Source: Xylella taiwanensis
GTDB taxonomy: Bacteria > Pseudomonadota > Gammaproteobacteria > Xanthomonadales > Xanthomonadaceae
Reading direction: 5' to 3'
Assembly (NCBI RefSeq): GCF_013177435.1
Contig: NZ_CP053627.1
Coordinates: forward strand, 450,001-482,000
Length of the DNA stretch: 32,000 nt
The number at the start of each line of letters is the position of its first letter. Position 1 is the first letter of the stretch. Below the pieces are notes generated by a model, which saw only the letters and a program-made list of their open reading frames with translations, was not told where the DNA came from and did no database searches. Positions 6,234-29,370 of this stretch are shown one piece after another. The position numbers and the translations under genes are program-made.

Positions 6234-6235
6234 CC

Positions 6236-7525: not shown

Positions 7526-7537
7526 CGCCAAGGAGAC

Positions 7538-8317: not shown

Positions 8318-8338
8318 CTCCAGGGGGATATTCATGAA
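8288..8338 (+). repeat. Direct repeat 1 flanking the eex-like gene
   Basis: TTCACTAAAAGTGTGGTTCGAAAATGGTAACTCCAGGGGGATATTCATGAA is about 46/51 identical to 8541-8591. It covers the last codons of trbJ, an RBS, and the ATG of the next gene. Confidence 0.8.
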
Positions 8339-8570
8339 ACGAGTTATAGCGATTGGCTGTGTATATTTAGGCTGCCTCCTGCTTGCCTCCTGCGGCAAGC
8401 CAGTGCATTCCGTCGATTACTACATGCAACACGAGGATGAGCGAAATGCCATGCTCGAAAAGTGCAAGACCGACCCAGACCTCGTAACGCGAGATGGGAA
8501 CTGCCGCAGCGCCGCCGATGCGCAGCTGAGGTCGGGTAATTTCACTAAAAGCCCGATTCGAAAATGGTAA
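8334..8570 (+). CDS. Small lipoprotein in the entry-exclusion position (TrbK/Eex-like)
   Basis: Lipobox LLLASCGKP, 78 aa, located between trbJ and trbL as RP4 trbK and pKM101 eex are. DYYMQHEDERNAMLEKCKTDP...NC motif. Confidence 0.6.
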   Translation: MKRVIAIGCVYLGCLLLASCGKPVHSVDYYMQHEDERNAMLEKCKTDPDLVTRDGNCRSAADAQLRSGNFTKSPIRKW

Positions 8571-8591
8571 CTTCAGGGGGATATTCATGAA
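8541..8591 (+). repeat. Direct repeat 2 flanking the eex-like gene
   Basis: TTCACTAAAAGCCCGATTCGAAAATGGTAACTTCAGGGGGATATTCATGAA. See 8288-8338. Confidence 0.8.
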
Positions 8592-10035: not shown

Positions 10036-10067
10036 TAATGCAAAGCTGGTCGTTCTAAAATGAGCCT

Positions 10068-10292
10068 TTGATGAGGAAATTTACGCTCGTAGCCTTCCTG
10101 TCTTTTATCGCACTTGCGGGATGCAGCCAGGAGAAGGACAAATGTATCAAAGACGCGACTGTGGAAGGTTGCCCGCACTACGACGGCAATATTAAGCACT
10201 CGCCAGCAAAAAGCTGGTCATTCAATGACGCCTCCGTATCGGAATCACAAAAGCCGACTGAAGGCTCTGCATCGGAATCAAAAGGGAAATAA
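10068..10292 (+). CDS. Small lipoprotein, unknown function
   Basis: Lipobox FIALAGCSQ, 74 aa, embedded in the trb operon. Confidence 0.5.
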   Translation: MMRKFTLVAFLSFIALAGCSQEKDKCIKDATVEGCPHYDGNIKHSPAKSWSFNDASVSESQKPTEGSASESKGK

Positions 10293-10293
10293 A

Positions 10294-10902
10294 ATGCCCT
10301 TCCTTGATCTGCCACCGCAAATACAAGAGCGCGTCGTCTGCTCGATTACGGCTGCCGTCAAGTACGAGGTTCCGGCGAACATTGTGCTAGCAGTGGCCGA
10401 GCAAGAAGCTGGCAAGCCTGGCCAATGGGTCAAGAACACAAACGGCACACAGGATGTGGGACCGATGCAGTTCAACACGGCTTACTTAGCCGAATTACGC
10501 CAGTATGGGATCACGGCGCAAGACGTAGCACAAGGTGGGTGCTATTCCTATGATCTGGCCGCGTGGCGCTTGCGCGGTCACTTGCGCAGCGACCAGGGTG
10601 ATATTTGGACGCGAGCGGCGAATTACCATTCACGCACGCCGCAGTACAACGCAGTCTATCGCACCTCTCTCATCAAGCGAGCCAGAACGTGGGAAAACTG
10701 GCTCGTCGCCCGCTTTCCCACGTTCGATGCCACGCAATCTGGCAAAACACCAGCACCTCCCATAGCAACTCCTACCCAGCCTGTGCAGGTCGGCAATGCC
10801 TCAATACCAGTCCGGCACTACAACGCGGCAGCGGCAGCAGCTCTGGAAGCTACATTTAGACGCGAGTCACAAAATAATTTAATCTTCGCTAAGAGTTTTT
10901 AA
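10294..10902 (+). CDS. Lytic transglycosylase (SLT domain; VirB1/TrbN-like)
   Basis: VLAVAEQEAG (catalytic Glu context) ... GTQDVGPMQFNTAYL ... AANYHSRTPQYN. ATG at 10294, after the upstream stop at 10290-10292. The longer listed ORF (10114) is out of context. Confidence 0.75.
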   Translation: MPFLDLPPQIQERVVCSITAAVKYEVPANIVLAVAEQEAGKPGQWVKNTNGTQDVGPMQFNTAYLAELRQYGITAQDVAQGGCYSYDLAAWRLRGHLRSDQGDIWTRAANYHSRTPQYNAVYRTSLIKRARTWENWLVARFPTFDATQSGKTPAPPIATPTQPVQVGNASIPVRHYNAAAAAALEATFRRESQNNLIFAKSF

Positions 10903-14477: not shown

Positions 14478-15251
14478 TCAGTTGCGGCCAGCCATCACGC
14501 CGCCATCGACATCCCAAACGGCGCCAGTGACCCAGCCCGCCTTGTCTGACAGCAGGAAGGCGACCACTTCCGCCACATCCTGCGGCGTGCCCACGCGGCC
14601 GATCGGGTGAAAGCTGTTGAACCCTTGCAGCGCGCTGTGGACTTCGGCCTTGGGAATGAAGCCTTCGTAGATCGGGGTCTGCACCACGGCAGGCGACACA
14701 GCGTTGACACGGATGTTCTTACCGGCCAGTTCCATGGCCAGATGCTGGGTCAGGGAATGCAGGCCGGCCTTGGCCATGGAGTACGCCGAGGACGGCGTGG
14801 CCGCGATGGCCTGCTTGCCCCACATCGAACCGATGTTCACGATCGCGCCCGGACGGTTCTTGGCAACCAGATTGGCGGCGACCTTCTGCGTGATGAAGAA
14901 CGTGGCTTTGTTCAGTTGCATGTACTGGTCGTAGTCCGCGCCCGAATGCTCCAGGAACGGTTTGGGGAAGAACACTCCAGCGGCATTGACCAGCAGGTCG
15001 ATATCCGCGTGCTGCTCGTCCAAGGTCTTGATCAGCGAAGCCACGGCCTCGTCATTGGTCAGGTCTGCGGTCAGTGCCCAGACTTGACCCAGCGCAGCAA
15101 GCTCCTTGCGCGCTTCTTCGGTCTTCTCCGGGCGGTTGCCCACGATGACGACGCTGCCGCCGTCGGCCAGCACGGTGCGTGCGATCTGCATGCCCATGCC
15201 GCTGGTGCCGCCGACAACCAGCAGCTTCTTGCCCTTGAATTGATTGCTCAT
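14478..15251 (-). CDS. Short-chain dehydrogenase/reductase (SDR)
   Basis: [24 protein letters not shown] (TGxxxGxG), NAAG, and a YSMAK catalytic Tyr-Lys motif. Start at 15251 rather than the listed 15401. Confidence 0.85.
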
Positions 15252-15448
15252 CTTGAAATCCTCTCTGTTGGCCCGCCGCTCGGCAGGGGATGAATAGAAG
15301 AAAAACTGTTGATTCCGAAGGTGGCAGCATTGCCGCACCTTCCAGCTCCGTATGAATTTTTCTCTGGAATAAGCGTTATTGTTCTCCTGTTCCCAAAGCA
15401 AGACAAACCATATAAAGTGTCAGTCATTGAAAGAAAAACTTTATCGAA

Positions 15449-16366
15449 ATGAAGTCACCCGTCCACCTGAATGCCTTGCGCGCCTTCGAGGCCAGCGTCC
15501 GCCACCAGAGCTTTTCTGCGGCGGCGGCCGAACTCAACGTCACGCCAGCAGCGGTAGGCCAACTCGTGCGCTCGCTGGAAGACTGGCTGGGAACGCCGCT
15601 CTTCGTGCGGGGCAGCAGCGGCCGCGTGCGGCTCGTTCCCACAGAGGCCGCTGAGCGGGCACTGCCCGATATCCGCGCCGGGTTTGATCGGCTAACCCTG
15701 GGGATGGAGAGACTTCAGGAGGGTGCGACAAACGGCGTGCTGACCGTGGCCGTCAGCCCAGCCTTCGCAGCGAAATGGCTATTACCCCGCATCGACCGCT
15801 TCCAGGCCGTCTGCGCCGACACGGATGTGCGCTTGGACACCAACCTCAAACCCGTGGATTTCGTAGCTCAGCGGGTTGATATCGGGGTGCGATATGGTGC
15901 CGGCCAATGGCCGGGGTTGACCGCCGAGAAGCTGATGGACGAAGAGGTTTATCCGGTGTGCTCGCCCCAATTGCTGCGTGAGCACTGGCGCTTGCAAAAG
16001 CCTGCGGACCTGGCCCAGGAAACCCTGATCCACGATTTGTCCATGGACCGACACACAGTGTTCCCGAGCTGGGAGGCTTGGATGCAGAAAGCCGGTGTGA
16101 CAGATGCCATTACCCAACGAGGCATGCAGATCAACAATTCTGCTGCGGTCCTACAGGCGGCGATCGAGGGGCATGGCGTAGCGCTGGCGCGCAGTGTTAT
16201 GGCTCGTGACGACTTGGCAAGCGGACGTCTGGTAAGACTGTTTCCAGACATCAACTTTGCTTCTGCACTGGCGTACTACGTTGTGTATCGACCGGAATGT
16301 GCGAGCTTGCGCAAACTGACTACCTTTCGGGATTGGTTGCTAGCAGAAGCCGCCCATTCGGGGTAG
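15449..16366 (+). CDS. LysR-family transcriptional regulator (GcvA-like), divergent from the SDR operon
   Basis: N-terminal wHTH LNALRAFEASVRHQSFSAAAAELNVTPAAVGQLVRSLEDWLGTPLF, followed by a LysR substrate-binding domain. Confidence 0.85.
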   Translation: MKSPVHLNALRAFEASVRHQSFSAAAAELNVTPAAVGQLVRSLEDWLGTPLFVRGSSGRVRLVPTEAAERALPDIRAGFDRLTLGMERLQEGATNGVLTVAVSPAFAAKWLLPRIDRFQAVCADTDVRLDTNLKPVDFVAQRVDIGVRYGAGQWPGLTAEKLMDEEVYPVCSPQLLREHWRLQKPADLAQETLIHDLSMDRHTVFPSWEAWMQKAGVTDAITQRGMQINNSAAVLQAAIEGHGVALARSVMARDDLASGRLVRLFPDINFASALAYYVVYRPECASLRKLTTFRDWLLAEAAHSG

Positions 16367-16393
16367 AACGAGCAGTCGTGTCACCAGCCGCCA

Positions 16394-16705
16394 TTACTCT
16401 TTGAGCCGGTCAACCAGTCGTGTTATCAGGTCCATGCGCTCATGGAAAATAGCCACGATCAGAGCAGGCGCTCCCTCACGCGGCAAACAGAAGACGTAAT
16501 GATGTTCGTACCGCCCCATCCGTAGAGCCGGAAAAAGCGCACTCATGTCTTTGAACACCCCCCGGCCATCGGCGAGACTGGCGATACCCTGTTCCAACGT
16601 AGCAATGTAGCGGCGCACCTGCGCATCGCCCCATTGCTTGCGGGTGTAGCGGACGATGCCGCGCAGATCGGATTCTGCCGCCGCAGTGAGAACGTAGCGG
16701 ATCAA
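16394..16705 (-). CDS. parE: ParE-family toxin (intact)
   Basis: 103 aa; MIRYVLTAAAESDLRGIVRYTRKQWGDAQVRRYIATLEQGI...HHYVFCLPREGAPALIVAIFHERMDL. Confidence 0.8.
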   Translation of the reverse strand: MIRYVLTAAAESDLRGIVRYTRKQWGDAQVRRYIATLEQGIASLADGRGVFKDMSALFPALRMGRYEHHYVFCLPREGAPALIVAIFHERMDLITRLVDRLKE

Positions 16706-16953
16706 GCCCTGCCTTCGGTCAGTTCTTCATTGAGAATTTCGCTGATGCTCTTGGCAGACACATTGCCGGCAAGTCCCTCGTGGATACGTGTGCCGAGCAG
16801 GGTTTTCAGTTCCTCCCATGCCTGATTGGCATCAGCGTCGCCGGGAAACAGCTTTTCCAGCGCATATTGCTTGATGGTCTTGCCCTGCAAGGCAGCCAGC
16901 GCTTTCAGGCTTTGGTGCTGCCGGTTTGTTATGTCTATGGTCAGGCGACTCAT
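16702..16953 (-). CDS. parD: ParD-like antitoxin
   Basis: MSRLTIDITNRQHQSLKALAALQGKTIKQYALEKLF (RHH-like N-terminus). 4-bp overlap with parE. Start at 16953. Confidence 0.75.
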   Translation of the reverse strand: MSRLTIDITNRQHQSLKALAALQGKTIKQYALEKLFPGDADANQAWEELKTLLGTRIHEGLAGNVSAKSISEILNEELTEGRA

Positions 16954-16983
16954 GGGATAACATCCACAATTATACATCCCCAC

Positions 16984-17003
16984 ATTAGCGCATATGTGCT
17001 AAT
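16984..17003. promoter_or_regulatory. Near-palindrome in the parD-tnpR divergent intergenic region (candidate res subsite or operator)
   Basis: ATTAGCGCATATGTGCTAAT has inverted halves around a central TATA/AT. It lies in the 222-bp gap between divergently oriented parD and tnpR. Confidence 0.4.
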
Positions 17004-17175
17004 GGAGCAAGCAGTTGTACATGGCAGTATTGGTGCAGGCTGTCGTAAAACACTTGTTTTCCGTCATATCTGCAACAGTCGTATGCACCCACCTCCTAGC
17101 GGCCCAAAAATTGTTCGGAAAACTCTGTCGCCATGCGTCATCATACGGAAACCTATTTTTGATGGTTATCCGCCT

Positions 17176-17769
17176 ATGTTGGTTGGCTACATGCGCGTGT
17201 CGTCGGACTCCGACCGGCAGAGTACGGACTTGCAGCGCGATGCGCTGCTCGCTGTCGGCGTCGATGTCCGGCACCTATTCGAGGATCGCGCTTCTGGTGC
17301 GAAGGATGACCGTGCCGGTTTGGTGCGGGCACTCGAATTCGTCCGGCCCGGCGACGTGCTGGTGGTGTGGAAGCTCGACCGGCTCGGCCGCTCGCTGTCG
17401 CATCTGCTTGCCATCGTGACCTCGCTCAAGGACAAACGGGTGGCGTTCCGTTCGTTGACGGAAAACTTGGATACCACGACACCCTCGGGTGAATTCCTGT
17501 TCCAGGTGTTCGGCGCGCTCGCGCAGTATGAACGCGCCTTGATCCAGGAGCGCGTCGTCGCCGGCCTGGCCACCGCACGTAAACGCGGCCGGATCGGTGG
17601 CCGGCCGCAGGCGATCACTGGCGAGAAGTTGGACGCCATCATCGCCGCGCTGGATGGCGGCATGTCCAAGGCGGCGGTATGCCGCAACTTCGGCGTCAAG
17701 CGAACCACGCTGATCGAGACCCTGGCACGGGTCAGTTGGACAGGCTCTCGTGGAGCGTCATCGCAATGA
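17176..17769 (+). CDS. tnpR: Serine recombinase/resolvase of Tn3-family element C
   Basis: MLVGYMRVSSDSDRQSTDLQRDAL...VLVVWKLDRLGRSLSHL...FGALAQYERALIQERV...GRIGGRP plus a C-terminal HTH. The stop overlaps the tnpA ATG (ATGA at 17766-17769). Confidence 0.9.
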   Translation: MLVGYMRVSSDSDRQSTDLQRDALLAVGVDVRHLFEDRASGAKDDRAGLVRALEFVRPGDVLVVWKLDRLGRSLSHLLAIVTSLKDKRVAFRSLTENLDTTTPSGEFLFQVFGALAQYERALIQERVVAGLATARKRGRIGGRPQAITGEKLDAIIAALDGGMSKAAVCRNFGVKRTTLIETLARVSWTGSRGASSQ

Positions 17770-19098
17770 CGGCCAAGAGCGAACGATTGACCGTCCTGTC
17801 GGACGCCGAGCAGGAAGCCTTGTACGGGTTGCCGGATTTCGACGACACCCAAAGGGTGGAATACCTTGCGCTGACCGAAGCCGAACTGGCGCTCGCCAGC
17901 GGCCGGCCCAGCCTCACCGCCCAGGTCTATTGCGTCTTGCACATCGGCTACTTCAAGGCCAAGCACGCCTTCTTCCGCTTCGACTGGAACGAGGTCGAAG
18001 ACGATTGCGTCTTCGTGCTGAGCCGTTATTTCCACGGCGAGCCGTTCCAGCGCAAGCCGATCACCAAGCACGAGCATTACGCCCAGCGTGAGCGGATCGC
18101 GGAGTTGTTCGGCTACCGGCCGTGGGGGGCCGACTTCATGCCGCAGCTTGTCGCGCTGGCGGCGCAAATCGTGCGGCGCGACGTGACGCCTGGGTTCGTC
18201 GCCGCCGAGCTGATCGTCTGGCTCAACGAACACAAAATCATCCGGCCGGGCTATACCACCCTGCAAGAGCTGGTCAGTGAAGCCCTGTCCGTCGAACGTC
18301 GGCGGCTGGGCGGGCCTGCTGGCGGAAGTGCTGGACAAACCAGCTAAGGCCGCACTGGGCCAGCTCCTGGTGCGTGATGACACCCTGTCGCAACTGGCAG
18401 CGCTCAAGCAAGACGCCAAGGATTTCGGCTGGCGTCAGATGGCCCGCGAGCGAGAGAAGCGCGCCACGTTGGAGCCGCTTCATGGGATCGCCAAGGCGCT
18501 GCTGCCCAAGCTCGGCGTCTCACATCAGAACCTGCTGTACTACGCCAGCATGGCGAACTTCTACACCATCCACGACCTGCGCAATCTGAAAGCCGATCAG
18601 ACGCACCTCTACCTGCTGTGCTATGCCTGGGTACGCTACCGGCAACTCTCCGACAACCTGGTCGATGCGATGGCCTACCACATGAAGCAATTGGAGGAGG
18701 AAAGCAGCGCAGACGCAAAGCAGTCCTTTGCTGCCGAACAGACACGCCGTCAGCAAAATACGCCGCAGCAGGTCGGCCGCCTGCTGTCGCTCTACATCGA
18801 CGACAGCGTGCCCGATCCCACGCCGTTCGGCGATGTTCGCCAGCGCGCTTACAAGATCATGCCGCGCGACACGCTGCAAACCACGGTACAGCGGATGAGC
18901 GAGAAGCCGGTGAGCAAACTGGCGCTGCACTGGCAGGCAGTGGACGGCCTGGCCGAGCGTATCCGCCGCCATCTTCGGCCGCTACACGTTGCGCTCGACC
19001 TGGCTGGCACCGACCCGAACAGCCCGTGGCTGGCGGCGCTGACCTGGGCCAAGGGCGTGTTCGCCAAGCAGCAGCAAATGAAGGATGGCATCTATTGA
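17766..19098 (+). pseudogene. tnpA: Tn3-family transposase, N-terminal ~440 codons, frameshifted and 3'-truncated
   Basis: MTAKSERLTVLSDAEQEALYGLPDFDDTQRVEYLALTEAEL... Frameshift near 18305 (an extra G in CTGGGCGGG restores ...ERRRLAGLLAEVLDKP). Transposase sequence stops near 19080, where the lower-GC insert begins. Confidence 0.8.
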
Positions 19099-19119
19099 TA
19101 GGTTTTTGTTTTACGGAGG

Positions 19120-19145
19120 TTGGATCTCGCAGTGCGGCGTATAAT
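19120..19145 (+). promoter_or_regulatory. Possible sigma70-type promoter for the TIR-caspase pair
   Basis: Perfect TATAAT at 19140-19145. The best -35 is TTGGAT at 19120-19125, but the spacer is only 14 bp, so this is weak. Confidence 0.3.
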
Positions 19146-19218
19146 GAATTTCGCCGGCTGGCTGCGCGAGGATGTGTGCCTTATACACTGCAAACACAAT
19201 TCATTAAGGAGCGTTACT

Positions 19219-19590
19219 ATGGCCGACAATAAAGTCATCTTCGTTGCCTTCGCCATCGAAGATGAGAACATCCGCAACATGATCAAGGGGCAGTCTTTGC
19301 GTACCGACTCGCCCTTTGAGTACATAGATATGTCTGTCAAAGAGGCTTACGAAGAAGAGTGGAAAAAGAAGGTGCGAACTCGCATCCTTCGCTCCGATGG
19401 CGTCCTTGTCATCGTCAGCAAAAACTCCCTCAACTCCAGTGGGCAGCAGTGGGAGATTCAATGCGCCAAGGAAGAGAAGAAAAAAATTCGTGGCATCTGG
19501 GCCTATAAGGAAGATCGCACCGACCTCGCCGGTGTGGATACGATGGTCTGGACTTGGGACAACATCGCTGCCTGGATTAATAGCCTTTAA
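19219..19590 (+). CDS. TIR-like domain protein (DUF1863 / ThsB-type), 123 aa
   Basis: AAGGAG at 19206-19211, 7 nt before the ATG at 19219. [13 protein letters not shown] (flavodoxin-like beta1), [36 protein letters not shown] (the W-E-I motif places a candidate catalytic Glu at E79). Size and motif order fit stand-alone bacterial TIR-like proteins. Confidence 0.75.
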
Positions 19591-20576
19591 TGCGTAAAGC
19601 ACTTGTAGTCGGCATCAACAGCTACGCCAACGTTTCACCACTCTATGGTTGCGTGAACGATGCGTTAGCGGTTAATACCATGCTTAGTCGGCACGCCGAT
19701 GGGTCAGTGAATTTCGGTGTTAAGTGTTTAACCGCCACTGGATCAAGCGGTTCGGTTGGGAGAGATGAGCTTCGAAAGGCCATCGCAAGCCTTTTCGATG
19801 GTGATGGTGAAGTTTCACTCTTCTACTTTGCCGGGCACGGTCACATCGAAGCGACGGGTGGCTACCTTTGCTCTTCTGACGTCAAGACCGGAAACGACGG
19901 CGTGCCGTTGGCCGAAATCATGACGATGGCCAACCAATCGAAGATTCAGAACCGCTTGATCATTCTCGATAGCTGTTACAGCGGTGTCACAGGAGGAAGC
20001 CCGTTGCAGCAGAAGGTAGCCGAGATCAGCGATGGAGTGACCATCCTCACTGCCTCAACAGCAGAACAGTATGCAACTGAAGAAAATAGGGCTGGGGTCT
20101 TTACCAGCTTGTTAATCGATGCGCTTGGCGGCGCTGCCGCAAACCTCGTCGGAGATGTGACGCCAGGCGGTGTCTATGCACATGTAGACCAGTCGCTCGG
20201 GCCATGGGCGCAACGACCTGTTTTTAAGACCAACGTTAAACGTTTCGTTTCCTTGCGGAAAGTACAACCTCCCTTGGAACCTGCGGAACTTCGCCGGATT
20301 TCAGAGTTTTTCCCGGCCCCTGGATTTCAGTTCCAGCTTGACCCGACGTATGAGCCAGAGCGGTATGAGACCTGGGCCACAGACCCCAAAAGCGTTCCAG
20401 CTCCAGACCCTGACCACAACGCGATCTTCAAAATCCTACAGAATTACAACCGCGTAGGGCTTGTTATGCCTGAAGGTGCTCCGCACATGTGGCATGCTGC
20501 AATGGAGAGCAAAACCATTCGTCTCACGGCTCTCGGTGAGTACTACCGACTGCTCGCAGTAAAGAACCTAATATAG
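19590..20576 (+). CDS. Caspase-like (peptidase C14 / metacaspase-type) protease with an uncharacterised ~110-aa C-terminal region, 328 aa
   Basis: [23 protein letters not shown]; His-Cys dyad in [10 protein letters not shown] (H83) and [11 protein letters not shown] (C129). The ATG shares one base with the TIR gene stop (TAATG). Confidence 0.85.
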
Positions 20577-20663
20577 GGGCTGGGGGTAGTTGAAGATCGG
20601 CCGCGTTATTGCGGTTGCAATTACCCGAACAGAAATTCAGAGATTCGACTCGTTGTGCTTGAC

Positions 20664-20772
20664 ATGAAGCGAATCGCAGTGCGTGAAGCGGTAGGCCGCT
20701 TCCGCACCGCGAACCCGCGCGTCTTCGGCTCGGTGCTTCATGGAACCGACCGTGATGGCAGCGATATCGATC
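20664..20772 (+). pseudogene. Nucleotidyltransferase (MNT-type antitoxin-like) 5' fragment, about 36 codons
   Basis: MKRIAVREAVGRFRTANPRVFGSVLHGTDRDGSDIDLLVDAL (GS...D.D motif), cut off at the junction with the second tnpR copy. No HEPN partner is present. Confidence 0.6.
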
Positions 20773-20774
20773 TG

Positions 20775-21222
20775 TTGGTTGATGCGCTCGCTCGAATTCG
20801 TCCACCCTGGCGACGTGCTGGTCGTGTGGAAACTAGACCGGCTCGGCCGCTCGCTGTCGCACCTGCTGGCCATCGTAACTTCGCTCAAAGACAAACGGGT
20901 GGCCTTCCGCTCGCTGACGGAAAACCTGGACACCACGACGCCATCGGGGGAATTTCTGTTCCAGGTATTTGGTGCGCTCGCGCAATACGAGCGCGCGTTG
21001 ATCCAGGAGCGCGTCGTCGCTGGCCTGGTTGCTGCCCGCAAACGTGGTCGGATCGGCGGACGGCCACAAGCAGTCACTGGTGAGAAGCTGGACACCATCG
21101 TAGCCGCGCTTGATGGTGGCATGTCCAAAGCGGCAGTATGCCGCAACTTCGGCGTCAAGCGAACCACGCTGATCGAGACCCTGGTACGGGTCGGTTGGAT
21201 GGGTTGCCGTGGAGCGTCATAG
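20775..21222 (+). pseudogene. tnpR: Second, 5'-truncated and diverged copy of the element-C resolvase (from about codon 55)
   Basis: ..LEFVHPGDVLVVWKLDRLGRSLSHLLAIVTSLKDKRVAFRSL... is collinear with 17335-17769. About 85-88% nt identity by eye, with mostly third-position differences. Confidence 0.8.
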
Positions 21223-21224
21223 CG

Positions 21225-21345
21225 ATGACAACTAAGAGCGAACGATCCCCCACCATTTGGCGATGTGCGCCAGTGCGCCTACAAGATCATGCCCCACGAT
21301 ACGCTCCAAACCAGCGCACAACGTATGAGCGTGAAGCCGGTGAAT
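21225..21345 (+). pseudogene. tnpA: Remnant of the element-C-type tnpA with a large internal deletion
   Basis: ATGACAACTAAGAGCGAACGA (compare 17766-17786) is joined directly to sequence matching 18818-18908 (..GGCGATGTGCGCCAGTGCGCCTACAAGATCATGCC..). Confidence 0.7.
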
Positions 21346-21396
21346 TACTAATGATGACCAAGGGACTTAACTAGCTAAGTCTCTCGGTCATAGGGT

Positions 21397-21633
21397 TTAA
21401 CTGCATTCAATGCTTAGGCGGGCTGCTTCGATCAGAACATCAATTGGTTTCCCGAGCAGAATCTCCGCTGTTTCAGCCGTGATGGGACGATCATCGGTTT
21501 GGTAGCCGTTTTCATCAATCTTTTCGAGACCCAGCATAGATGAATCAACCCATCCAAAGGGCGACTCTGGAATTCGGTTCCACTGATCCTCCCATTCGGC
21601 TTTTGTTTCCCATCCAGCACCACCAAGTGTCAA
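21397..21633 (-). CDS. Hypothetical small protein downstream of primase copy 2 (start uncertain, possibly TTG)
   Basis: Open frame ...LTLGGAGWETKAEWEDQWNRIPESPFGWVDSSMLGLEKIDENGYQTDDRPITAETAEILLGKPIDVLIEAARLSIECS*. No ATG near its 5' end and no family recognised. Confidence 0.3.
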   Translation of the reverse strand: MTLGGAGWETKAEWEDQWNRIPESPFGWVDSSMLGLEKIDENGYQTDDRPITAETAEILLGKPIDVLIEAARLSIECS

Positions 21634-21637
21634 TTTC

Positions 21638-22251
21638 CTACCCCATGCGAACCCGACGCGGTTGACGTTCCTGCTTCCATTCACGTTGTTGTTCCTGTTG
21701 CTGAGCACGTGTTTGATGCTTCTCGATAGCCTTGCCAACAGCCGCACGCACCTGGCGTTCAACACCTTCGATGCCAAGTACGCTTTTGGTGGCAAGATCG
21801 TTGAAGTCGGTGAAACTTTTCGGATTGTCCGTTTGTTCACCGGGAGCGAAAATCGGAAAGAACGCCGTACCACCCACAGCAAGCGCTGCTTCTTTGGCCT
21901 TGGTCTTGCCGGGATTATTCTGTAAGGACTGATCATCGTCACCGGCAATCACGATGGGCTTGTTCGGGAAAATTTTGTGCAACGCCTTGGCAACGACTTC
22001 GAGGTTGCCAGCATCAAATGCGGCAACTGTCCCATAACCCAGGGCCTGCGACACCTGCGCGGCGGTGGCATAGCCCTCGCCGATGACGATCACGGGTGCT
22101 GCTGCAATAGCATCAAGGCCACCTATTGGATGAAAGCAACCCTCCTTGCGACTCCGCTTCGCAAACTGCTTAGTATCGTCCTCTTGGATGTATGGCATCG
22201 TCCATTGCTTACCATCCGAATCGATGCCCGGAATGTAAGTTTTCTGGCCAT
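21638..22251 (-). pseudogene. Primase 3' portion (Toprim region), second copy, 5'-truncated at the cassette array
   Basis: MPYIQEDDTKQFAKRSRKEGCFHPIGGLDAIAAAPVIVIGEGYATAAQVSQALGYGTVAAFDAGNLEVVAKALHKIFPNKPIVIAGDDDQ... This is collinear with 3181-3618 but lacks that copy's two deletions. Homology ends at CTGGCCAT (22244-22251). Confidence 0.8.
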
Positions 22252-22416
22252 ATCACTGTTTTATAAAGTGGTAATACCGTGAATGGACTCAGCAATACCC
22301 AGATGCTTCAAGGGATGTTCCATAACGGCGACCCTATTCGGGGGAGCGATTCTGCCGCAGCTATCTACTCTCTGCAGCGCCCGGATCTGATGCACACCGC
22401 CATGTCAGATGTTTGA
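22252..22416 (+). pseudogene. 5'-truncated copy of the 89-aa ORF family (leftmost, broken cassette)
   Basis: ..SGNTVNGLSNTQMLQGMFHNGDPIRGSDSAAAIYSLQRPDLMHTAMSDV* aligns with codons ~37-89 of 23113-23382. Confidence 0.7.
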
Positions 22417-22594
22417 TGCAACACGATATTGTTGGGTTTCATCAAGGATTTCACAGGCATGTATATCACCCAGGTGAGGAGGTCAAAAAAACAGGAGGGA
22501 TTCTTAAATAGGAATGATGATTAAACAACAGGAACGCTTTTACCCAGCATCACAGGTGTTGTATCTCTATATTTAAACTCTTAAAGGACATGAC

Positions 22595-23095
22595 ATGCCG
22601 TTTATTAATGAAATTCCCGCAGCGGAAGATATCGAAAAATATGGTTTGCCTTATAAAAACGATCTGAATTTACCCATGCGTCTGCGTAATGAATGGACTG
22701 TGGATCGTGAACGCAACTTTCATTTATACGGACTTGGTGCTACTGGAAATCAAGCGTTTGAAGAAAAAATTTATCATCGCTTTAAACTTTATTTGAATGG
22801 AAAAAATTTTATTGTTGAATTGGAAGATGGGGGGGCCTTGAGGTTTGATGACAATCCTAATGTTGTTGTATGGAGCAAATTAATGTCGATTTGGTTGATA
22901 CCTCATGATCAGGTGAGCCCCCTGAAGATATTGCCGCCCTCGGCCTGGGAAACCCCCGATGCGCCGCAACCGCTATTGGATAATTATTCGCTCAATCAAT
23001 TTGTCACCATTCTGAAAGAAGCATTCACTGTGTATGGAGACGGTTACGCTAATCGTTACATCCATACTCCCATTGTGGTCCGTTTTGGATTTTAA
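22595..23095 (+). CDS. Cassette protein 1 (166 aa), unknown family; candidate immunity-type protein
   Basis: AAGGA RBS. MPFINEIPAAEDIEKYGLP...WTVDRERNFHLYG...LYLNG.NFIVEL...SPLKILPPSAWETPDAPQPLLDNYSLNQF..ILKEA...PIVVRFGF. Paralogous to 23561 and 24537. Confidence 0.8.
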   Translation: MPFINEIPAAEDIEKYGLPYKNDLNLPMRLRNEWTVDRERNFHLYGLGATGNQAFEEKIYHRFKLYLNGKNFIVELEDGGALRFDDNPNVVVWSKLMSIWLIPHDQVSPLKILPPSAWETPDAPQPLLDNYSLNQFVTILKEAFTVYGDGYANRYIHTPIVVRFGF

Positions 23096-23112
23096 ATCAT
23101 AGGAAGATAGTC

Positions 23113-23382
23113 ATGGCACTTACTGCAGAACAAGCCAACGCATTACTTGACAGCATCACTACCAAGGAGCAGTTGCGCAATTTAATTAATCAGCTGGATA
23201 TCAACAGCGGTGGCCGTACCACCATTTTATACAGCGGTCATACTGTGAATGGACTCGATAACTCCCAGATTCTCCAGGGCATGCTGCATCACGGCGACGC
23301 TATCCGGGGGAGCGATCACGCCGCGGCTCTTTACTCTCCGCAGCGCCGGTATATGATGCACACCGCCATGTCAGATGTTTGA
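23113..23382 (+). CDS. 89-aa ORF: first ~64 codons homologous to the RTX protein N-terminus, then a 25-aa family-specific tail
   Basis: MALTAEQANALLDSITTKEQLRNLINQLDINSGGRTTILYSGHTVNGLDNSQILQGMLHHGD | AIRGSDHAAALYSPQRRYMMHTAMSDV*. RBS AGGAAG. Confidence 0.6.
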   Translation: MALTAEQANALLDSITTKEQLRNLINQLDINSGGRTTILYSGHTVNGLDNSQILQGMLHHGDAIRGSDHAAALYSPQRRYMMHTAMSDV

Positions 23383-23560
23383 TGTAACACGATATCGTCG
23401 GGTTTCATCAAGCATTTCACAGGCATGTATATCACCCAGGTGAGGAGATCAAAAAAACAGGAAGGATTCTTAAACAGGAATGATGATTAAACAACAGGAA
23501 CACTTTTACCCAGCATCACAGGTGTTGTATCTCTATATTTAAATTCTCAAAGGACATCAC

Positions 23561-24070
23561 ATGCCGTTTATTAATGAAATTCCCACCGCGGAAGATATTG
23601 AAAAATATGGATTGCCTTTTAAAAAAGATTTGACCTTGCGTATGGAACTGCGCAGACAATGGACTGTGGATCGTGAACGCAACTTTCACTTATACGGAGG
23701 TGGTGCTAATGCAAATCAGGCATTTACAGATGTTTTTTATTATGAGTTCGATCTTTATCTGAATGGTTCGAAATTTATTATCGAATTGGACCGCGACCGT
23801 ACTCGTGGACCCTCGAATTTTGAAGACAACCCCTATGTCATCACGTGGAGCAAATTGATGTCGATCAAGGTGATGCCTCGTGATCAAGTGAGCCCCCTGA
23901 AGACATTGCCTCCCTCGGCCTGGGAAAACCCCGATGCACCGCAACCTTTATTGGACAATTATTCGCTCAATCAATTTATCGCCATCCTGAAAGAAGCGGT
24001 GACTGTGCGTGGTGCAGGTGACTCTAATCGTCACATCCATAATCCCATTGTGGTCCGTTTTGGATTTTAA
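23561..24070 (+). CDS. Cassette protein 2 (169 aa), paralogue
   Basis: Same N- and C-terminal blocks as cassette 1. The central third has diverged (..GGGANANQAFTDVFYYEFDLYLNGSKFIIELDRDRTRGPSNFEDNPYVITW..). Confidence 0.8.
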   Translation: MPFINEIPTAEDIEKYGLPFKKDLTLRMELRRQWTVDRERNFHLYGGGANANQAFTDVFYYEFDLYLNGSKFIIELDRDRTRGPSNFEDNPYVITWSKLMSIKVMPRDQVSPLKTLPPSAWENPDAPQPLLDNYSLNQFIAILKEAVTVRGAGDSNRHIHNPIVVRFGF

Positions 24071-24087
24071 ATCAGAGGAAGATCAGC

Positions 24088-24357
24088 ATGGCACTCACTG
24101 CAGAACAAGCCAACGCATTACTTGGCAGCATTACCACTCAAGAACAGTTACGCGATTTAATTAATCGGCTGGATATCAACAGTGGCGGCAGTACCACCGT
24201 TTTATACAGTGGTAATACCGTGAATGGACTCGATAACTCCCAAATTCTCCAGGGGATGTTGCATAACGGCGACGCTATTTGGGGGAGCGATTACGCTGCG
24301 ACTCTTTACTCTCCGCAGCGCCGCTATATGCTGCAAACAGCTGTGTCAGATCTTTGA
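24088..24357 (+). CDS. 89-aa ORF, second full copy
   Basis: MALTAEQANALLGSITTQEQLRDLINRLDINSGGSTTVLYSGNTVNGLDNSQILQGMLHNGD | AIWGSDYAATLYSPQRRYMLQTAVSDL*. Confidence 0.6.
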   Translation: MALTAEQANALLGSITTQEQLRDLINRLDINSGGSTTVLYSGNTVNGLDNSQILQGMLHNGDAIWGSDYAATLYSPQRRYMLQTAVSDL

Positions 24358-24536
24358 TGAAACACGATATGATGGTGTTTCATCAAGGATTTCACAGGCA
24401 TGTACATCATTATCAGATGAGGAGGTCAAGAAACAGGAGGGATTCTTAAACAGGAATGATGATTAAACAACAGGAACGCTTTTACCCAGCATCACAGGTG
24501 TTGTATCTCTATATTTAAACTCTCAAAGGACATCAC

Positions 24537-25043
24537 ATGCCGTTTATTAATGAAATTCCATCAGAAGAAGATATCGAAAAATATGGATTGCTTCATCTTT
24601 ATAAAAAAAACGAGATATTACCTATCGAAATACGCCGTCAATGGACAGTTGATCATGAGCGTAACTTTTATTTATGTGGAATCGGTCAAAGAGGGAGTCA
24701 AGCGAGTGATGAACCCGTTTATTACCAATTCCAGTTATATCTTAATGGCCCCAAATTTATTGTTGAATTGGATCGTGGTTATGGCCCCTCGACTTTCAAT
24801 GACAATCCCTATGTTGTTAGATGGGACACAATTGTGTCTATCAACGCGGTTTCCAATCCTATGAAACCTCTCGTTTCGTTGCCACATTCAGCTTGGAAGA
24901 ACTCCGATGAACCGCAACCAGTGTTGGATAACTATTCACTTAATGAATTCATCACGATTTTGAAAGAGGCGTTGACAACACGCGGAGCGGGGGAAAGTAA
25001 CCGTCACATCCATCATCCCATTGTGGTCCAGTTTGGATTCTAA
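24537..25043 (+). CDS. Cassette protein 3 (168 aa), the paralogue immediately upstream of the full-length RTX gene
   Basis: The most diverged copy (..LLHLYKKNEILPIEIRRQWTVDHERNFYLCGIGQRGSQASDEPVYYQFQLYLNGPKFIVELDRGYGPSTFNDNPYVVRWDTIVSINAVSNPMKPLVSLP..). Confidence 0.8.
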   Translation: MPFINEIPSEEDIEKYGLLHLYKKNEILPIEIRRQWTVDHERNFYLCGIGQRGSQASDEPVYYQFQLYLNGPKFIVELDRGYGPSTFNDNPYVVRWDTIVSINAVSNPMKPLVSLPHSAWKNSDEPQPVLDNYSLNEFITILKEALTTRGAGESNRHIHHPIVVQFGF

Positions 25044-25068
25044 AATTTTAAATCAGAGGAAGATCAGC

Positions 25069-28000
25069 ATGTCACTCACCGCAGAACAAGCCAACGCATT
25101 ACTCGACAGTATCACTACCAAAGAGCAACTGCGCGATTTAATTAACCAGCTCGATATCAACAGTGGCGGCAGTACCACCGTTTTATACAGTGGTAATACC
25201 GTGAATGGACTCGATAACTTCCAAATTCTCCAGGGCATGCTGCATAACGGCGACGATATCAGGGTCATCGATAACACCGAAGCGGCCAAGTTTCTGAATG
25301 TCACGCCTGGCGATCCCAATCGAAATGATGTACTTGAGGAGAAACTGCAACAAATTTTTGGTGATGACCCTAATGAGCGCAACAGCCGCTCCAACCAATT
25401 CCTTTTCGGCGAAAGAACTGCCGATGGCACCCGTTTCCCGAACGGCGCTTGGGACAACATATCGGCCCGCTTTGTGGATGCCACCGTCGGCGAGGTGCGC
25501 ACGCTGACCGGCGGTGCGTCTGTCAATGGCGTGTTTAATCAAACCGAACTGCCGCGCCTGCTGAATAACCCCAATATCACCTCGGTGGATGGCCTGCCCT
25601 TATCCGACTTGCAACGGCTGGGGCCGGCGGCGGCCTTCCAGGCGATTTCAGCGCAATCCGACAACTTGTCCGGCTACATCAAGGTGGCCATTGATGCCGA
25701 TGGCCGCATCATACATTTACCTGATGGCGTGCCACGCTTGGATAGCCGCCAGTACTTCGGGCTGACCGGTGTAGAAGGCAAACCCCCGCTGGTGGATACG
25801 GGGCGTTACGGCAGCTTTGACAGATTCATCCCCGAGCGCCGCAGCGGTCATGTGGATGGGGCGCGCCTGGTGCAGGAGATCAAAGACGGCTATCAGAGCG
25901 CCTCGCGGTTGCTGGGGCCGGAGTCTGGCGCGGCACGGGCGAATGCGCTGCGCGTACTGGGCAAAATGGGTGTGGCGGCGGATCTGCTCTCGCTGGCGAC
26001 GATGGTGCACGATGCCAATGCGGCCTACGCCCGCGGCGATACCAGCGCCGGCAACACGATTGTGCAGGATTGGACCAGCCGCTATCTGGGCGGGCTGATG
26101 GGTGGTTTGATGGAGGCACAAGCAGTCGGGTCGCTGCTGACGCCGTTGTATATGGATGGCCCGGCCGGGGCGATTTTTGCTTCCATCCTGACGCTAGCGG
26201 CGGGTGTGGAGGGCACCTTCTTAGGCAGCCATTACCTGGGGGATGTGCTGAACAAGATATTCGACCAATTGCATCGGCTCGGCCAGGTGTCGGAGCAGGC
26301 GCTCCACGATTGGATCACGCACATGAGCGATGCCTTCCACCGCCTATCCGGTCAACTACACAAAGACAGCGACGCTTTTATGACGCTGCTTCATGACCTG
26401 TTCGGCTATCAGCGTGATGTCCGCGACCCGCTGGTGCTGGATCTGGATGGCGACGGCATCAAACACGCCAGCGGCTGGATTAAATCCGATGACGGCTTGC
26501 TAGTGCTGGACCGCAACGGCAACGGACACATTGATGACGGCAGCGAACTGTTCGGTGCCGATACCCTATTGGCCAACGGCCAGAAAGCCACCTCCGGCTT
26601 TGAGGCACTGCGCGATCTGGACAGCAACGGGGATGGCGTCTTTGATGCCGGCGACACCCGCTTTACCGACGTGCGCGTGTGGCGCGATCTCAATCAGGAT
26701 GGCCGCTCCCAGACCAACGAGCTGTTCACCCTCTCCAGCCTGGGCATTGCCTCGATCGCCCTGACGCCCACCGACACCCAGCGCGTCAACTTGAACGACG
26801 GTAATTTCATTGATGGCCGCGGCACCTACACCCGCAGCGATGGCCGCACCGGCGTCGTTGGCAACCTGCAATTGGGTCTGGACCACTTCTACCGCGACTA
26901 CAACGGCGCCCACGCCCAAGTGACCGTGAGCGAGGCGGCCCGCGCCTTACCAGCCATCACCGGCAGCGGCGCGGTGCGCGATCTGCAAGAAGCCGCCAGC
27001 CAGTCACCGGCCTTATTGGCGGCCGTTCAAGCGCTATTGTCCGGCACCACTCCGGGCACCCTGCGCGCCGCGCTGGATCAGGTCATTGCCCTGTGGGCCG
27101 ACACCTCAACCATGCGTAGCAGCGAGGAGCGCCTCGAAGCCTCCGGGGACATGCAGCGCAATGTGTATTACCAATGGTTCGTCCCTGCTGCCGTGATCGC
27201 CCAGGGCCAGGAGGCCGTTCAGACCTGGACCCAGCAGCAGCATGCCCGGCTTGGGCCGATCATCGGCATCCTGGAGAAGTTCAACGGCTCCACCCTGGTC
27301 AGCGATCACAACGGCCAGATCTCCATGGGGGGGCAGATCTTCAGCTGGAACCGCGTGGTCCATCCTGACGGACACGGCGAAGAGGTAATGACCTTCCGGT
27401 TCCTGCCGGAGCAGTTCGATCCCTTGATTGACCCCTTCACGAAGGCCTATGCCCACCTGAAAGAATCCATCTATATCCGGCTGGTGCTCCAGCAGCGGCT
27501 CAGCGATTACCTGTCCGGACTCACCATGACATATCACCACGGTGTGATGGGCTGGGATGCCTCCGGGGTGCACGCCAAGCTGGATGACACCTGGCAGCAC
27601 AACAAAGCCCAGGCGCTTCAGGATGCGATGGACCTGTACCGCTACGGCAGCGATGCCCTTGCTGGCAGCGACTGGAAGCCGCTGGATACCTTGCGCGACA
27701 TGATCGACCGTACCGCCGCCGCCCCTGATGGCATACAGGCCCTGAAGGAGGCGGGTACGCCCTTTGTGTCTGGAGATCTGGAAGGCAGTGCCGCGGCGGA
27801 TATCATGTTCGGCGATGCCGGAGCCAATACCCTCAGTGGCGGCGCTGGCGACGATGTGCTGTCCGGCGGCGGCGGAGACGACACGCTGTACGGTGGTGAG
27901 GGCAACGATATCCTGCGTGGCGATGCGGGCAACGACCTGCTGTACGGCAGCTCCCAAAACAATACCTACCTGTTTAACCAAGGAGACGGCCACGACACCC

Positions 28001-29370
28001 TCGTGGATCAAGGCGGTAGCGACACCATCGTGTTTGGCACAGGCATTGCCGCCAGCGACATCCGAGGATGGTTGCAAGGTCAGGATGTAGTGCTGGATTT
28101 GGGCAACGGCCACGACAGCATTCGGTTCAAGAACAGGGTGAACTCCGATGGAGGGCGTGACACACGCACCGACATCGAACAGATCACCTTTGCCGATGGC
28201 ACCGTCTGGACCGGAAAGACGTTGAATGACATGGCGTTAACCACACAGGGCACCTCCGGCAACGACACCCTGCAGGGCTGGCAAGGCCGGGACACCATGC
28301 TGGGCGGCGCTGGCGATGACACGCTGTCCGGCCGCGGCGGCGATGATGTGCTGCTGGGCGGGGATGGCAACGACCTGCTGGACGGCGGCAGCGGCAGCAA
28401 CCGTCTGGAGGGCGGCGCCGGTAACGATGTGCTCAAGGTGTCTGCGTATTACTCCTCTGACAACGTGCTGAGCGGTGGTACCGGCGATGACACGCTGTAC
28501 GGCAGTAATAATTCGGACACGTATTTGTTCGAGAAAGGAGACGGCCACGACACCATTGTGGAACAGGGCGGTACCGACAAACTCGTGTTGGGCGCCGGGA
28601 TTGTGGCCAGTGATGTCAAGGTGCTGCGCGAAGGTCAAGACGTGGTGCTGGACCTGGGCAACGGCCACGACAGCATCCGCTTGAAGGACTGGTTGACCTC
28701 CGATGGCTACCGTAGCAGCACTGCCCACATTGAGCAGATCGTGTTTGCTGATGGCACGGTCTGGACTGGGGAGACGTTAAGCGACATCGGCCTGACGACC
28801 GTCGGCACCTCTGGCGACAACACCCTGCAGGGCTGGCAAGGCCGGGACATCCTGCTGGGCGGCGCTGGCGATGACGTGCTGTCCGGCGGCGCTGGCACCA
28901 ACCGTCTGGAAGGCGGTGCCGGTAACGACGTGCTCAAAGTGTCGGCGTATTACTCCTCTGACAACGTGCTGAGCGGTGGTACCGGCGATGACACGCTGTA
29001 CGGCAGTAATAATTCGGACACGTATTTGTTCGAGAAAGGAGACGGCCACGACACCCTCGTGGAACAGGGCGGTACCGACAGGCTGGTGTTTGGTGAGGGA
29101 CTGCATCGTGAAGAGGCGCTCTTTACGAAGTCAGGAGACGATCTCTCCATCCTTTTCAATCATGGGGACGATCAGGTGACCGTGGCAGGCTGGTTCAGTA
29201 CGCCGGCGCATCAGGTGGAATCTTTCGTATTCCAGGATGGGACGGTGCTGTCCGGTGAGGTGGAGCGTTTGATTGCGGCGATGGCGATGCCGTCCGCGGT
29301 GACCACGACACAGGCGACGGTGCGCGACACTAACGAGCATCACTTACTGGTCGCCAGTTCGATTGTCTGA
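25069..29370 (+). CDS. Large RTX-type (hemolysin-type Ca-binding nonapeptide repeat) protein, 1433 aa; probable T1SS substrate with an N-terminal effector region
   Basis: Start MSLTAEQ at 25069 with RBS AGAGGAAG (the listed 25021 Met lies inside the upstream gene). DLDGDG / NGNGHIDDGSELFG / DSNGDGVFD Ca-binding-like block. Three modules of GGAGNDVL / GGxGDDTLYG nonapeptides at 27.8-29.1 kb. Unstructured C-terminal tail ...HHLLVASSIV*. Confidence 0.9.
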   Translation: MSLTAEQANALLDSITTKEQLRDLINQLDINSGGSTTVLYSGNTVNGLDNFQILQGMLHNGDDIRVIDNTEAAKFLNVTPGDPNRNDVLEEKLQQIFGDDPNERNSRSNQFLFGERTADGTRFPNGAWDNISARFVDATVGEVRTLTGGASVNGVFNQTELPRLLNNPNITSVDGLPLSDLQRLGPAAAFQAISAQSDNLSGYIKVAIDADGRIIHLPDGVPRLDSRQYFGLTGVEGKPPLVDTGRYGSFDRFIPERRSGHVDGARLVQEIKDGYQSASRLLGPESGAARANALRVLGKMGVAADLLSLATMVHDANAAYARGDTSAGNTIVQDWTSRYLGGLMGGLMEAQAVGSLLTPLYMDGPAGAIFASILTLAAGVEGTFLGSHYLGDVLNKIFDQLHRLGQVSEQALHDWITHMSDAFHRLSGQLHKDSDAFMTLLHDLFGYQRDVRDPLVLDLDGDGIKHASGWIKSDDGLLVLDRNGNGHIDDGSELFGADTLLANGQKATSGFEALRDLDSNGDGVFDAGDTRFTDVRVWRDLNQDGRSQTNELFTLSSLGIASIALTPTDTQRVNLNDGNFIDGRGTYTRSDGRTGVVGNLQLGLDHFYRDYNGAHAQVTVSEAARALPAITGSGAVRDLQEAASQSPALLAAVQALLSGTTPGTLRAALDQVIALWADTSTMRSSEERLEASGDMQRNVYYQWFVPAAVIAQGQEAVQTWTQQQHARLGPIIGILEKFNGSTLVSDHNGQISMGGQIFSWNRVVHPDGHGEEVMTFRFLPEQFDPLIDPFTKAYAHLKESIYIRLVLQQRLSDYLSGLTMTYHHGVMGWDASGVHAKLDDTWQHNKAQALQDAMDLYRYGSDALAGSDWKPLDTLRDMIDRTAAAPDGIQALKEAGTPFVSGDLEGSAAADIMFGDAGANTLSGGAGDDVLSGGGGDDTLYGGEGNDILRGDAGNDLLYGSSQNNTYLFNQGDGHDTLVDQGGSDTIVFGTGIAASDIRGWLQGQDVVLDLGNGHDSIRFKNRVNSDGGRDTRTDIEQITFADGTVWTGKTLNDMALTTQGTSGNDTLQGWQGRDTMLGGAGDDTLSGRGGDDVLLGGDGNDLLDGGSGSNRLEGGAGNDVLKVSAYYSSDNVLSGGTGDDTLYGSNNSDTYLFEKGDGHDTIVEQGGTDKLVLGAGIVASDVKVLREGQDVVLDLGNGHDSIRLKDWLTSDGYRSSTAHIEQIVFADGTVWTGETLSDIGLTTVGTSGDNTLQGWQGRDILLGGAGDDVLSGGAGTNRLEGGAGNDVLKVSAYYSSDNVLSGGTGDDTLYGSNNSDTYLFEKGDGHDTLVEQGGTDRLVFGEGLHREEALFTKSGDDLSILFNHGDDQVTVAGWFSTPAHQVESFVFQDGTVLSGEVERLIAAMAMPSAVTTTQATVRDTNEHHLLVASSIV
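27800..29100 (+). repeat. Three tandem RTX modules inside the gene, with long near-identical DNA stretches
   Basis: For example, 28426-28560 and 28917-29051 (GGTAACGA.GTGCTCAA.GTGTC.GCGTATTACTCCTCTGACAACGTGCTGAGCGGTGGTACCGGCGATGACACGCTGTACGGCAGTAATAATTCGGACACGTATTTGTTCGAGAAAGGAGACGGCCACGACACC) are nearly identical. Confidence 0.85.

Follow-up and report, generated by a model that had tools for sequence, protein, structure and literature searches.

A probable type IV Thoeris anti-phage operon in an integrated, plasmid-like region of Xylella taiwanensis

What system is encoded by a TIR gene and a caspase-like protease gene that share a single base at their junction? The two genes lie side by side at positions 19219 to 20576 of a 32,000-nucleotide stretch of Xylella taiwanensis DNA (assembly GCF_013177435.1, contig NZ_CP053627.1, positions 450,001 to 482,000 of the forward strand), which we call the window and whose own numbering is used throughout. 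A first-pass annotation, made from the letters of the window, had proposed a module in which a TIR-made signal switches on a caspase-like effector against phages, either a recently described Thoeris variant or a distinct architecture. We report that the pair is, with a probability of about 90% judged from sequence comparison, an orthologue of the type IV Thoeris operon of Pseudomonas sp. 1-7, carried in an integrated region resembling a conjugative plasmid, between decayed Tn3-family transposons.

Both genes are on the plus strand. According to the open reading frame (ORF) list and to our reading of the sequence, the TIR gene (thsB) runs from an ATG at 19219 to a TAA at 19588-19590 and encodes 123 amino acids (aa), and the caspase-like gene (thsE) runs from an ATG at 19590 to a TAG at 20574-20576 and encodes 328. 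Base 19590 belongs to the stop codon of the first gene and to the start codon of the second, giving TAATG at 19588-19592, and a junction of the form T(A/G)ATG is kept in the six related loci checked. Because of this one-base stop/start overlap we regard the two genes as a single expression unit, as the first-pass annotation had done. A Shine-Dalgarno sequence, AAGGAG, occupies 19206-19211, seven bases 5' of the TIR start codon. The unit is laid out as follows:

19076..19218, plus strand: leader of unique sequence, from the last Tn3-like base to the start codon of the TIR gene, with TATAAT at 19140-19145 and AAGGAG at 19206-19211
19219..19590, plus strand: thsB, stand-alone TIR-domain protein, predicted signal synthase with Glu79 (Pfam, PADLOC, 88% identity to the Pseudomonas TIR)
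19588..19592, plus strand: TAATG stop/start overlap (sequence reading; same junction in six loci)
19590..20261, plus strand: protease part of thsE, residues 1-224, C14 family, His83/Cys129 dyad (Pfam; residue invariance)
20262..20576, plus strand: C-terminal domain of thsE, residues 225-328 plus stop, presumed N7-cyclic ADP-ribose (N7-cADPR) sensor (no Pfam family; gap-free alignment to the Pseudomonas caspase)

Searched against 5.8 billion proteins, the effector has thousands of relatives; the best 120 of them are 326-329 aa long and 81-100% identical to it. The entry "peptidase C14 [Pseudomonas sp. 1-7]" (P0083) is 84% identical over 328 of 328 residues without gaps, and the product of the gene directly upstream of it (P0162; L001:5630-5998) is 88% identical to the window's TIR protein over 123 of 123 residues, again without gaps. 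The Pseudomonas genes also overlap by one base, in TGATG. This operon is the system that defines type IV Thoeris (Rousset et al., bioRxiv 10.1101/2024.10.24.620036; cited as Science 387:510, 2025), so that the recent Thoeris variant suggested at first is the reading that stood, and the distinct architecture is rejected because the pair is an orthologue of that operon. The pair counts as already known, since a published model system is its close orthologue. The detection rule for type IV Thoeris is a ThsB_TIR or TIR_2 gene within one gene of a caspase-like effector (Rousset et al.); in Xylella the first protein scores above the ThsB_TIR cut-off and the two genes are adjacent, overlapping by a base. 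All sequence-level features of the type are present, namely an adjacent TIR, the TIR glutamate, the His/Cys dyad and a family-specific C-terminal domain.

The predicted TIR assignment rests on profile hidden Markov model matches and on orthology. Against Pfam ThsB_TIR (PF08937) the protein reaches 28.3 bits (E 2.3e-6), above the cut-off of 21.2, and several PADLOC ThsB models match it, in agreement with the 123-aa TIR-like protein of DUF1863/ThsB type described in the first-pass annotation; against Pfam TIR_2 it reaches 26.0 bits, slightly below the cut-off of 28. A PDB sequence search with it returned no relative at E up to 0.01. The motif G75-Q-Q-W-E79-I80 is found at the positions named earlier, and the glutamate picked out there as a candidate catalytic residue aligns with E79 of the Pseudomonas protein (PsTIR) and is invariant in 76 of 76 TIR homologues. 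The second protein, first called a 328-aa C14 caspase-like protease with a His83/Cys129 dyad, is indeed matched by Pfam Peptidase_C14 (E 1.4e-15, residues 1-202) and by the PADLOC caspase model; its motifs read FYFAGH83G and LDSC129YSG, and both dyad residues are invariant in 82 of 82 effectors. Its sole match in a PDB sequence search is plant metacaspase-4 (E 4e-4); that search gave no solved structure of a close effector relative, and we found no open-access structural paper.

Carried by E. coli, the Pseudomonas sp. 1-7 operon gives abortive-infection-like protection from phage T6, and the E79Q mutation in PsTIR and the C129A mutation in the partner caspase (PsCaspase) each abolish defence (Rousset et al., bioRxiv 10.1101/2024.10.24.620036); the cysteine singled out in the first-pass annotation is the very residue mutated in PsCaspase. 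The type IV operon of E. coli 328 likewise protects against T6, and the E. coli 328 homologue is slightly toxic when induced (Rousset et al.). During infection only, the TIR makes a small molecule that activates PsCaspase, which cuts elongation factor Tu (EF-Tu) and many other proteins after arginine (Rousset et al.). This TIR-made signal is N7-cADPR, shown for both the Pseudomonas and the E. coli orthologues (Rousset et al., bioRxiv 10.1101/2024.10.24.620036). Later work names the effector ThsE and describes a phage sponge, TadIV-1, that sequesters N7-cADPR.

From the Pseudomonas orthologue we infer N7-cADPR synthesis, arginine-directed proteolysis and phage protection by the Xylella copy. 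Phage infection would switch on the TIR protein, which, through Glu79, would turn NAD+ into the cyclic signal N7-cADPR. The caspase-like protease (His83/Cys129) would be activated by this signal, which probably binds to the C-terminal domain within a protease dimer, and would then cut many cellular proteins after arginine, EF-Tu included. The infected cell would then stop or die before phage progeny are released, and the population would be protected.

The C-terminal domain of the effector is family-specific. Some 104-125 residues fall outside the C14 match and belong to no Pfam family, close to the roughly 110 extra residues without a known motif counted in the first-pass annotation. A search with effector residues 222-328 through 1.84 billion representative proteins gave 393 representative clusters at E up to 0.001. 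Most hits of about 310-366 aa have the domain at their C-terminal end, and the three full-length ones (329-366 aa) that were scanned with Pfam (P0241, P0346 and P0377) all carry C14. The other hits are short fragments, save a few of 216-247 aa with the domain mid-protein (P0293, P0305, P0372 and P0374); these have no Pfam domain and may be mis-called fragments. Because the long hits are C14 proteins with the domain at their C-terminus, we assign it to the type IV Thoeris effector family; it also aligns gap-free to the C-terminus of PsCaspase. That this domain forms an N7-cADPR pocket in a dimer is the hypothesis of the authors who described the system (Rousset et al., bioRxiv 10.1101/2024.10.24.620036), and the first-pass guess of a ligand-sensing extension amounts to the same thing.

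The pair is kept together far beyond Xylella. In a scan of one genome per species, 519 genomes encode a relative of the effector; the best 80 of these, which we examined, span Gammaproteobacteria, Betaproteobacteria (Thiobacillus, Achromobacter) and Alphaproteobacteria as well as Bacteroidota, Nitrospirota, Planctomycetota, Acidobacteriota, candidate phyla and one archaeal bin. By tblastn with the window's TIR, a homologue lies directly upstream of the caspase in 73 of these 80 species-level loci, and for about 30 of the 80 that match stops 3 nucleotides short of the caspase start, the same spacing as in Xylella. In a single locus (L067) the TIR homologue is downstream of the caspase on the opposite strand. 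Six loci gave no tblastn match to the TIR; the three of them that were examined (L018, L079 and L071) have another gene of the ThsB_TIR family in the same position (Pfam E 1.8e-11 to 3.1e-16). In pairwise comparisons with six orthologues, where the synonymous rate (dS) could be estimated, the ratio of nonsynonymous to synonymous rates (dN/dS) ranges over 0.03-0.09 in the TIR gene and over 0.07-0.12 in the effector gene, and synonymous sites are nearly saturated when the comparison is with the Pseudomonas copy (dS about 1.5-2.5); both genes are therefore under purifying selection.

The related loci also point to exchange of the TIR partner. Genes directly upstream of the caspase, which starts at 5001, are found at L018:4591-5001, L031:4591-5001, L079:4552-4989 and L071:4553-4987. 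The effectors of L018, L031 and L079 are 77-86% identical to the window's, yet they are paired with different ThsB_TIR-family proteins: that of L031 is only 28% identical to the window's TIR, and those of L018 and L079 have no similarity to it by tblastn. In L071 the effector is 60% identical and the ThsB-type TIR is beyond tblastn detection. Identity of the TIR to that of the window is bimodal across the 80 loci (60-93% versus 27-43%), and because this bimodality occurs beside near-identical effectors, we conclude that the TIR partner has been swapped while the effector has stayed nearly unchanged. It is conceivable that several TIR lineages converge on one signal, or that more than one signal can act on the effector. 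That unrelated ThsB clades have been swapped onto effectors so nearly alike is mildly interesting in its own right. In the planctomycetotal locus L067 (6000-7342), the effector is followed by three consecutive small ORFs in place of one upstream TIR; the first of them (6000-6530, minus strand) matches Pfam ThsB_TIR (E 2.5e-8), and the other two (6418-6954, minus strand, and 6854-7342, plus strand) look TIR-like by eye only.

Both window proteins have exact counterparts in Xylella taiwanensis (AXI82797.1 and AXI82798.1). Their locus is part of the 2.82-Mb chromosome (CP011800.1 / CP087686.1), and the exact proteins occur on 32 contigs, for which all recorded source names are X. taiwanensis. Table S1 of Rousset et al. 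lists a type IV Thoeris system in "Xylella fastidiosa Wufong-1", under IMG genome 2751185833 with gene IDs 2753513518 and 2753513519. Our literature search for a link between strain Wufong-1 and X. taiwanensis found no paper. Taiwanese pear leaf scorch strains once filed as X. fastidiosa are now X. taiwanensis; the listed system is probably the locus studied here.

The pair stands out from its surroundings in composition, with a GC content of 0.49-0.55 against 0.60-0.65 in both flanks. Homology to a tnpR-tnpA unit of plasmid Tn3-family transposons (88-89.5% DNA identity to many plasmids) covers 17037-19075 and ends abruptly at 19075. A 5'-truncated second resolvase copy, lacking its first 50 or so codons and 85% identical in DNA to the first, begins at 20779. 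These two edges define an insert of about 1.70 kb (19076-20778), in keeping with the 1.7-kb, lower-GC insert in transposon debris that had been noted at the outset. In the left flank the transposase is frameshifted near 18280-18350 (ORFs 17679-18347 and 18277-19098) and its Tn3 homology is cut at 19075; the stretch 20779-21343 on the right is a second, more heavily deleted copy of the tnpR-tnpA unit, related to the left one by direct repeats (17320-17619 with 20779-21078, 85%; 18813-18913 with 21243-21343, 83%). The flanking features are:

17037..19075, plus strand: left flank, Tn3-family remnant, 88-89.5% DNA identity (Pfam Resolvase, DUF4158)
17176-17769, plus strand: intact resolvase gene of the left flank (Pfam Resolvase)
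17679-19098, plus strand: transposase remnant, frameshifted and 3'-truncated, with the DUF4158 N-terminal domain (Pfam)
20655..21343, plus strand: right flank, with a nucleotidyltransferase fragment, a resolvase copy and a transposase scrap
20655 to about 20790, plus strand: nucleotidyltransferase gene fragment, roughly its first 45 codons (weak Pfam NTP_transf_2)
20779-21222, plus strand: second resolvase copy (Pfam Resolvase, profile positions 53-144 only)
21243-21343, plus strand: transposase scrap of about 100 nucleotides, repeating 18813-18913

The nucleotidyltransferase fragment at 20655-20790 (MKRIAVREAVGRF...GSDIDLLVDA, of the MNT-antitoxin kind) is joined frame-shifted to the 5'-truncated resolvase and is the remnant of another small cassette. 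At the other edge, bases 19076-19112, 37 nucleotides starting where the Tn3 homology ends, are 100% identical to part of pPLS206, a 32.6-kb conjugative plasmid of X. taiwanensis, where the match (L087:3001-3037) lies 44 bp downstream of a recombinase gene; these bases may be a recombination junction or site.

Comparison of 15000-24000 with the 80-plus related loci by blastn found homology only inside 19198-20582 and no flank common to any of them. A megablast of the cassette against plasmids found nothing, and a scan for inverted repeats bracketing the pair found none, its 19 short pairs all being at chance level. The spreading unit is essentially the two genes.

On a larger scale, the window contains conjugative type IV secretion genes (CagX/VirB9, TrbI, TrbL and a lytic transglycosylase, SLT), which together with a Toprim-domain fragment fall at 5343-10902 and 21638-22259. 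On the minus strand, 16394-16956 holds an intact ParE/ParD toxin-antitoxin pair, just upstream of the Tn3 resolvase, and one stretch of the window is 83% identical to 38-kb conjugative plasmids of X. fastidiosa, whose annotation gives a zincin-like metallopeptidase domain protein at that point. Because of these secretion genes, ParDE and the plasmid-like stretch, we place the pair in a mobile region that resembles an integrated plasmid; the window itself is a conjugative plasmid or integrative and conjugative element that has integrated and is decaying. The called neighbours within 10 kb are ParDE, the resolvases, unannotated small ORFs and an RTX-type protein.

Several observations weigh against a working type IV Thoeris system in Xylella or limit what can be said of it. 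The structure predictions are of low confidence, and the folds of the TIR and of the C-terminal domain are putative. AlphaFold2 was given shallow alignments whose homologues are all at least 81% identical; for the TIR, 26 sequences at least 85% identical yielded a model with a mean predicted local distance difference test (pLDDT) score of 47, too poor to be of use. The effector model has a mean pLDDT of 57.6, moderate confidence being reached over residues 1-130 and in parts of the C-terminal domain; compared with the PDB, this low-confidence model retrieves MALT1, caspase-1, caspase-4/11 and metacaspases at E of about 1e-5 to 1e-3 and template-modelling (TM) scores of only 0.3-0.4, which is consistent with a predicted caspase fold and uninformative on the C-terminal domain. 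The effector also carries unusual residues: Tyr318, in the C-terminal domain, where 81 of 81 other homologues have His; Tyr130, beside the catalytic cysteine, where 77 of 81 have His; Arg167 (Gly in 76 of 81); Pro231 (Leu in 73 of 81); and Tyr259 (His in 31 of 31 close homologues). With 17 private changes against a median of 8, it tops the 32 close homologues. Reduced or altered effector activity is thus possible as judged from these alignments, a modest warning and not pseudogene evidence. The function of the Xylella allele is itself extrapolated from orthologue data. Finally, the perfect TATAAT reported upstream in the first-pass annotation does exist, at 19140-19145, and it was the promoter that did not hold up: a scan upstream of the pair found no sigma-70-like site on the plus strand, the hexamer has no acceptable -35, and the leader around it is not conserved in any related locus, DNA homology beginning only at 19198-19219. 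As the hexamer lacks a -35 and sits in non-conserved sequence, we do not count a promoter for the pair as demonstrated, and regard TATAAT as a partly supported candidate promoter element only.

Could the pair be type IV Thoeris by descent and yet be decaying in X. taiwanensis, its effector activation impaired and its defence lost? H318Y replaces an otherwise invariant histidine in the presumed ligand-binding domain, H130Y, G167R, L231P and H259Y are unusual too, the private changes are the most numerous among the close homologues, and the mobile genes around the pair are degraded (a frameshifted tnpA, a truncated resolvase, nucleotidyltransferase and Toprim fragments). Against this, the frames are complete, every catalytic residue is kept and the overlap is intact, and for these reasons we do not read the pair as a pseudogene. 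The occurrence of the exact proteins on 32 contigs, with X. taiwanensis as every recorded source name, means that the alleles are stably kept, the private changes number an unremarkable six in the broader alignment of 82 effectors, where 20 of 81 others have as many or more, and the TIR has zero departures from residues common to at least 85% of 75 other TIR homologues. We therefore find functional decay rather unlikely. That the Xylella allele, with Tyr318 in the presumed N7-cADPR-binding domain and Tyr130 next to the catalytic cysteine, is a naturally occurring variant whose signalling is altered also seems quite unlikely to us. As read from the alignment, these two substitutions could change ligand affinity, specificity or basal effector activity, or could alternatively be the beginning of loss in a host-restricted pathogen.

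Two further explanations deny the pair its identity as a Thoeris system. The protease might come from another conflict system (gasdermin, CBASS/Avs, type III CRISPR CHAT/PCaspase or EACC1), the TIR being incidental: its best NCBIfam match is "caspase, EACC1-associated type" (NF047832; E 2.4e-24), and there is a weak match to Pfam CHAT (E 0.12). The NCBIfam score of 86 bits is far under the curated cut-off of 140, for which reason that identity is rejected, and no gasdermin, CD-NTase, Avs, CRISPR or EACC1 gene is among the called neighbours within 10 kb on either side. With a TIR partner kept beside the caspase across phyla and a protein 84% identical to the TIR-activated PsCaspase, an origin in such a system is exceedingly improbable. 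Equally hard to credit is that the pair is an addiction or stabilization module of its mobile element, akin to a toxin-antitoxin system rather than a phage sensor. Its position in a region resembling an integrated conjugative element, beside ParDE and transposon remnants, would fit such a role, as would the slight toxicity of the E. coli 328 homologue on induction; however, the orthologue's protease is silent until the TIR makes its signal during infection, there is no evidence of antitoxin behaviour, and the flanks differ entirely in every locus, with no common carrier. Type I Thoeris was considered as well and rejected, there being no ThsA (SIR2-SLOG) within 10 kb on either side and the adjacent effector being a C14 protease. 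An orthologue of the Pseudomonas type IV operon remains our preferred identification.

The mechanism, signal molecule and distribution of type IV Thoeris are already published, and the pair adds little to the biology of defence systems. Its interest lies elsewhere. Xylella taiwanensis is the cause of pear leaf scorch, and its relative X. fastidiosa is treated with phage cocktails. Biocontrol phages against Xylella could be held back by an abortive-infection system that is intact and carried on a mobile region, and the H318Y/H130Y allele is a natural probe of the unsolved step of effector activation.

Farther along the window lies a locus of another kind. At 22595-25043, in DNA of markedly low GC content (0.37-0.48), three paralogous ORFs of 166-169 aa follow one another in tandem, with 59-72% identity to the first; two of the three were scanned (22595-23095 and 23561-24070), with no Pfam match. 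They sit immediately upstream of 25021-29370, which encodes an RTX-type protein of 1449 aa whose repeats are HemolysinCabind and HCBP_related. In its layout, 22595-29370 resembles a toxin or bacteriocin locus whose small partner genes form an array.

Compared with known systems, the pair is closest to the type IV Thoeris operon of Pseudomonas sp. 1-7, with which it shares gene order, lengths of 123 and 328 aa, the one-base overlap, E79, H83 and C129 at the same positions and the same C-terminal domain. It differs in its host, in its completely different flanks, in the H130Y, G167R, L231P, H259Y and H318Y substitutions of its effector, and in being known from sequence alone. The Xylella locus also lacks a gene for a DUF6338 protein of 196 aa that lies about 600 bp upstream of the TIR in four of four contexts of the Pseudomonas sp. 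1-7 effector, whose other flanks differ; this gene may be accessory or merely linked. Its positions are:

DUF6338 gene: L001:4428-5018, L002:4428-5018, L003:2923-3513 and L004:2071-2661

With type I Thoeris the pair would share, by analogy with its orthologue, a ThsB-type TIR, an NAD+-derived signal of the cyclic ADP-ribose family, a separate effector and abortive infection. It departs from type I in that the effector is a caspase-like protease and not a SIR2-SLOG NADase, and in that the orthologue's signal is N7-cADPR and not 3'cADPR. The gasdermin-activating proteases and the PCaspase of type III-B CRISPR-Cas, the latter described as a promiscuous and possibly arginine-directed executioner, have in common with the window's effector the C14/caspase fold and the His-Cys dyad. 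Those proteases are proteolytically activated or act on a specific gasdermin, whereas the type IV effector family is activated by a TIR-made nucleotide and has a C-terminal domain of its own.

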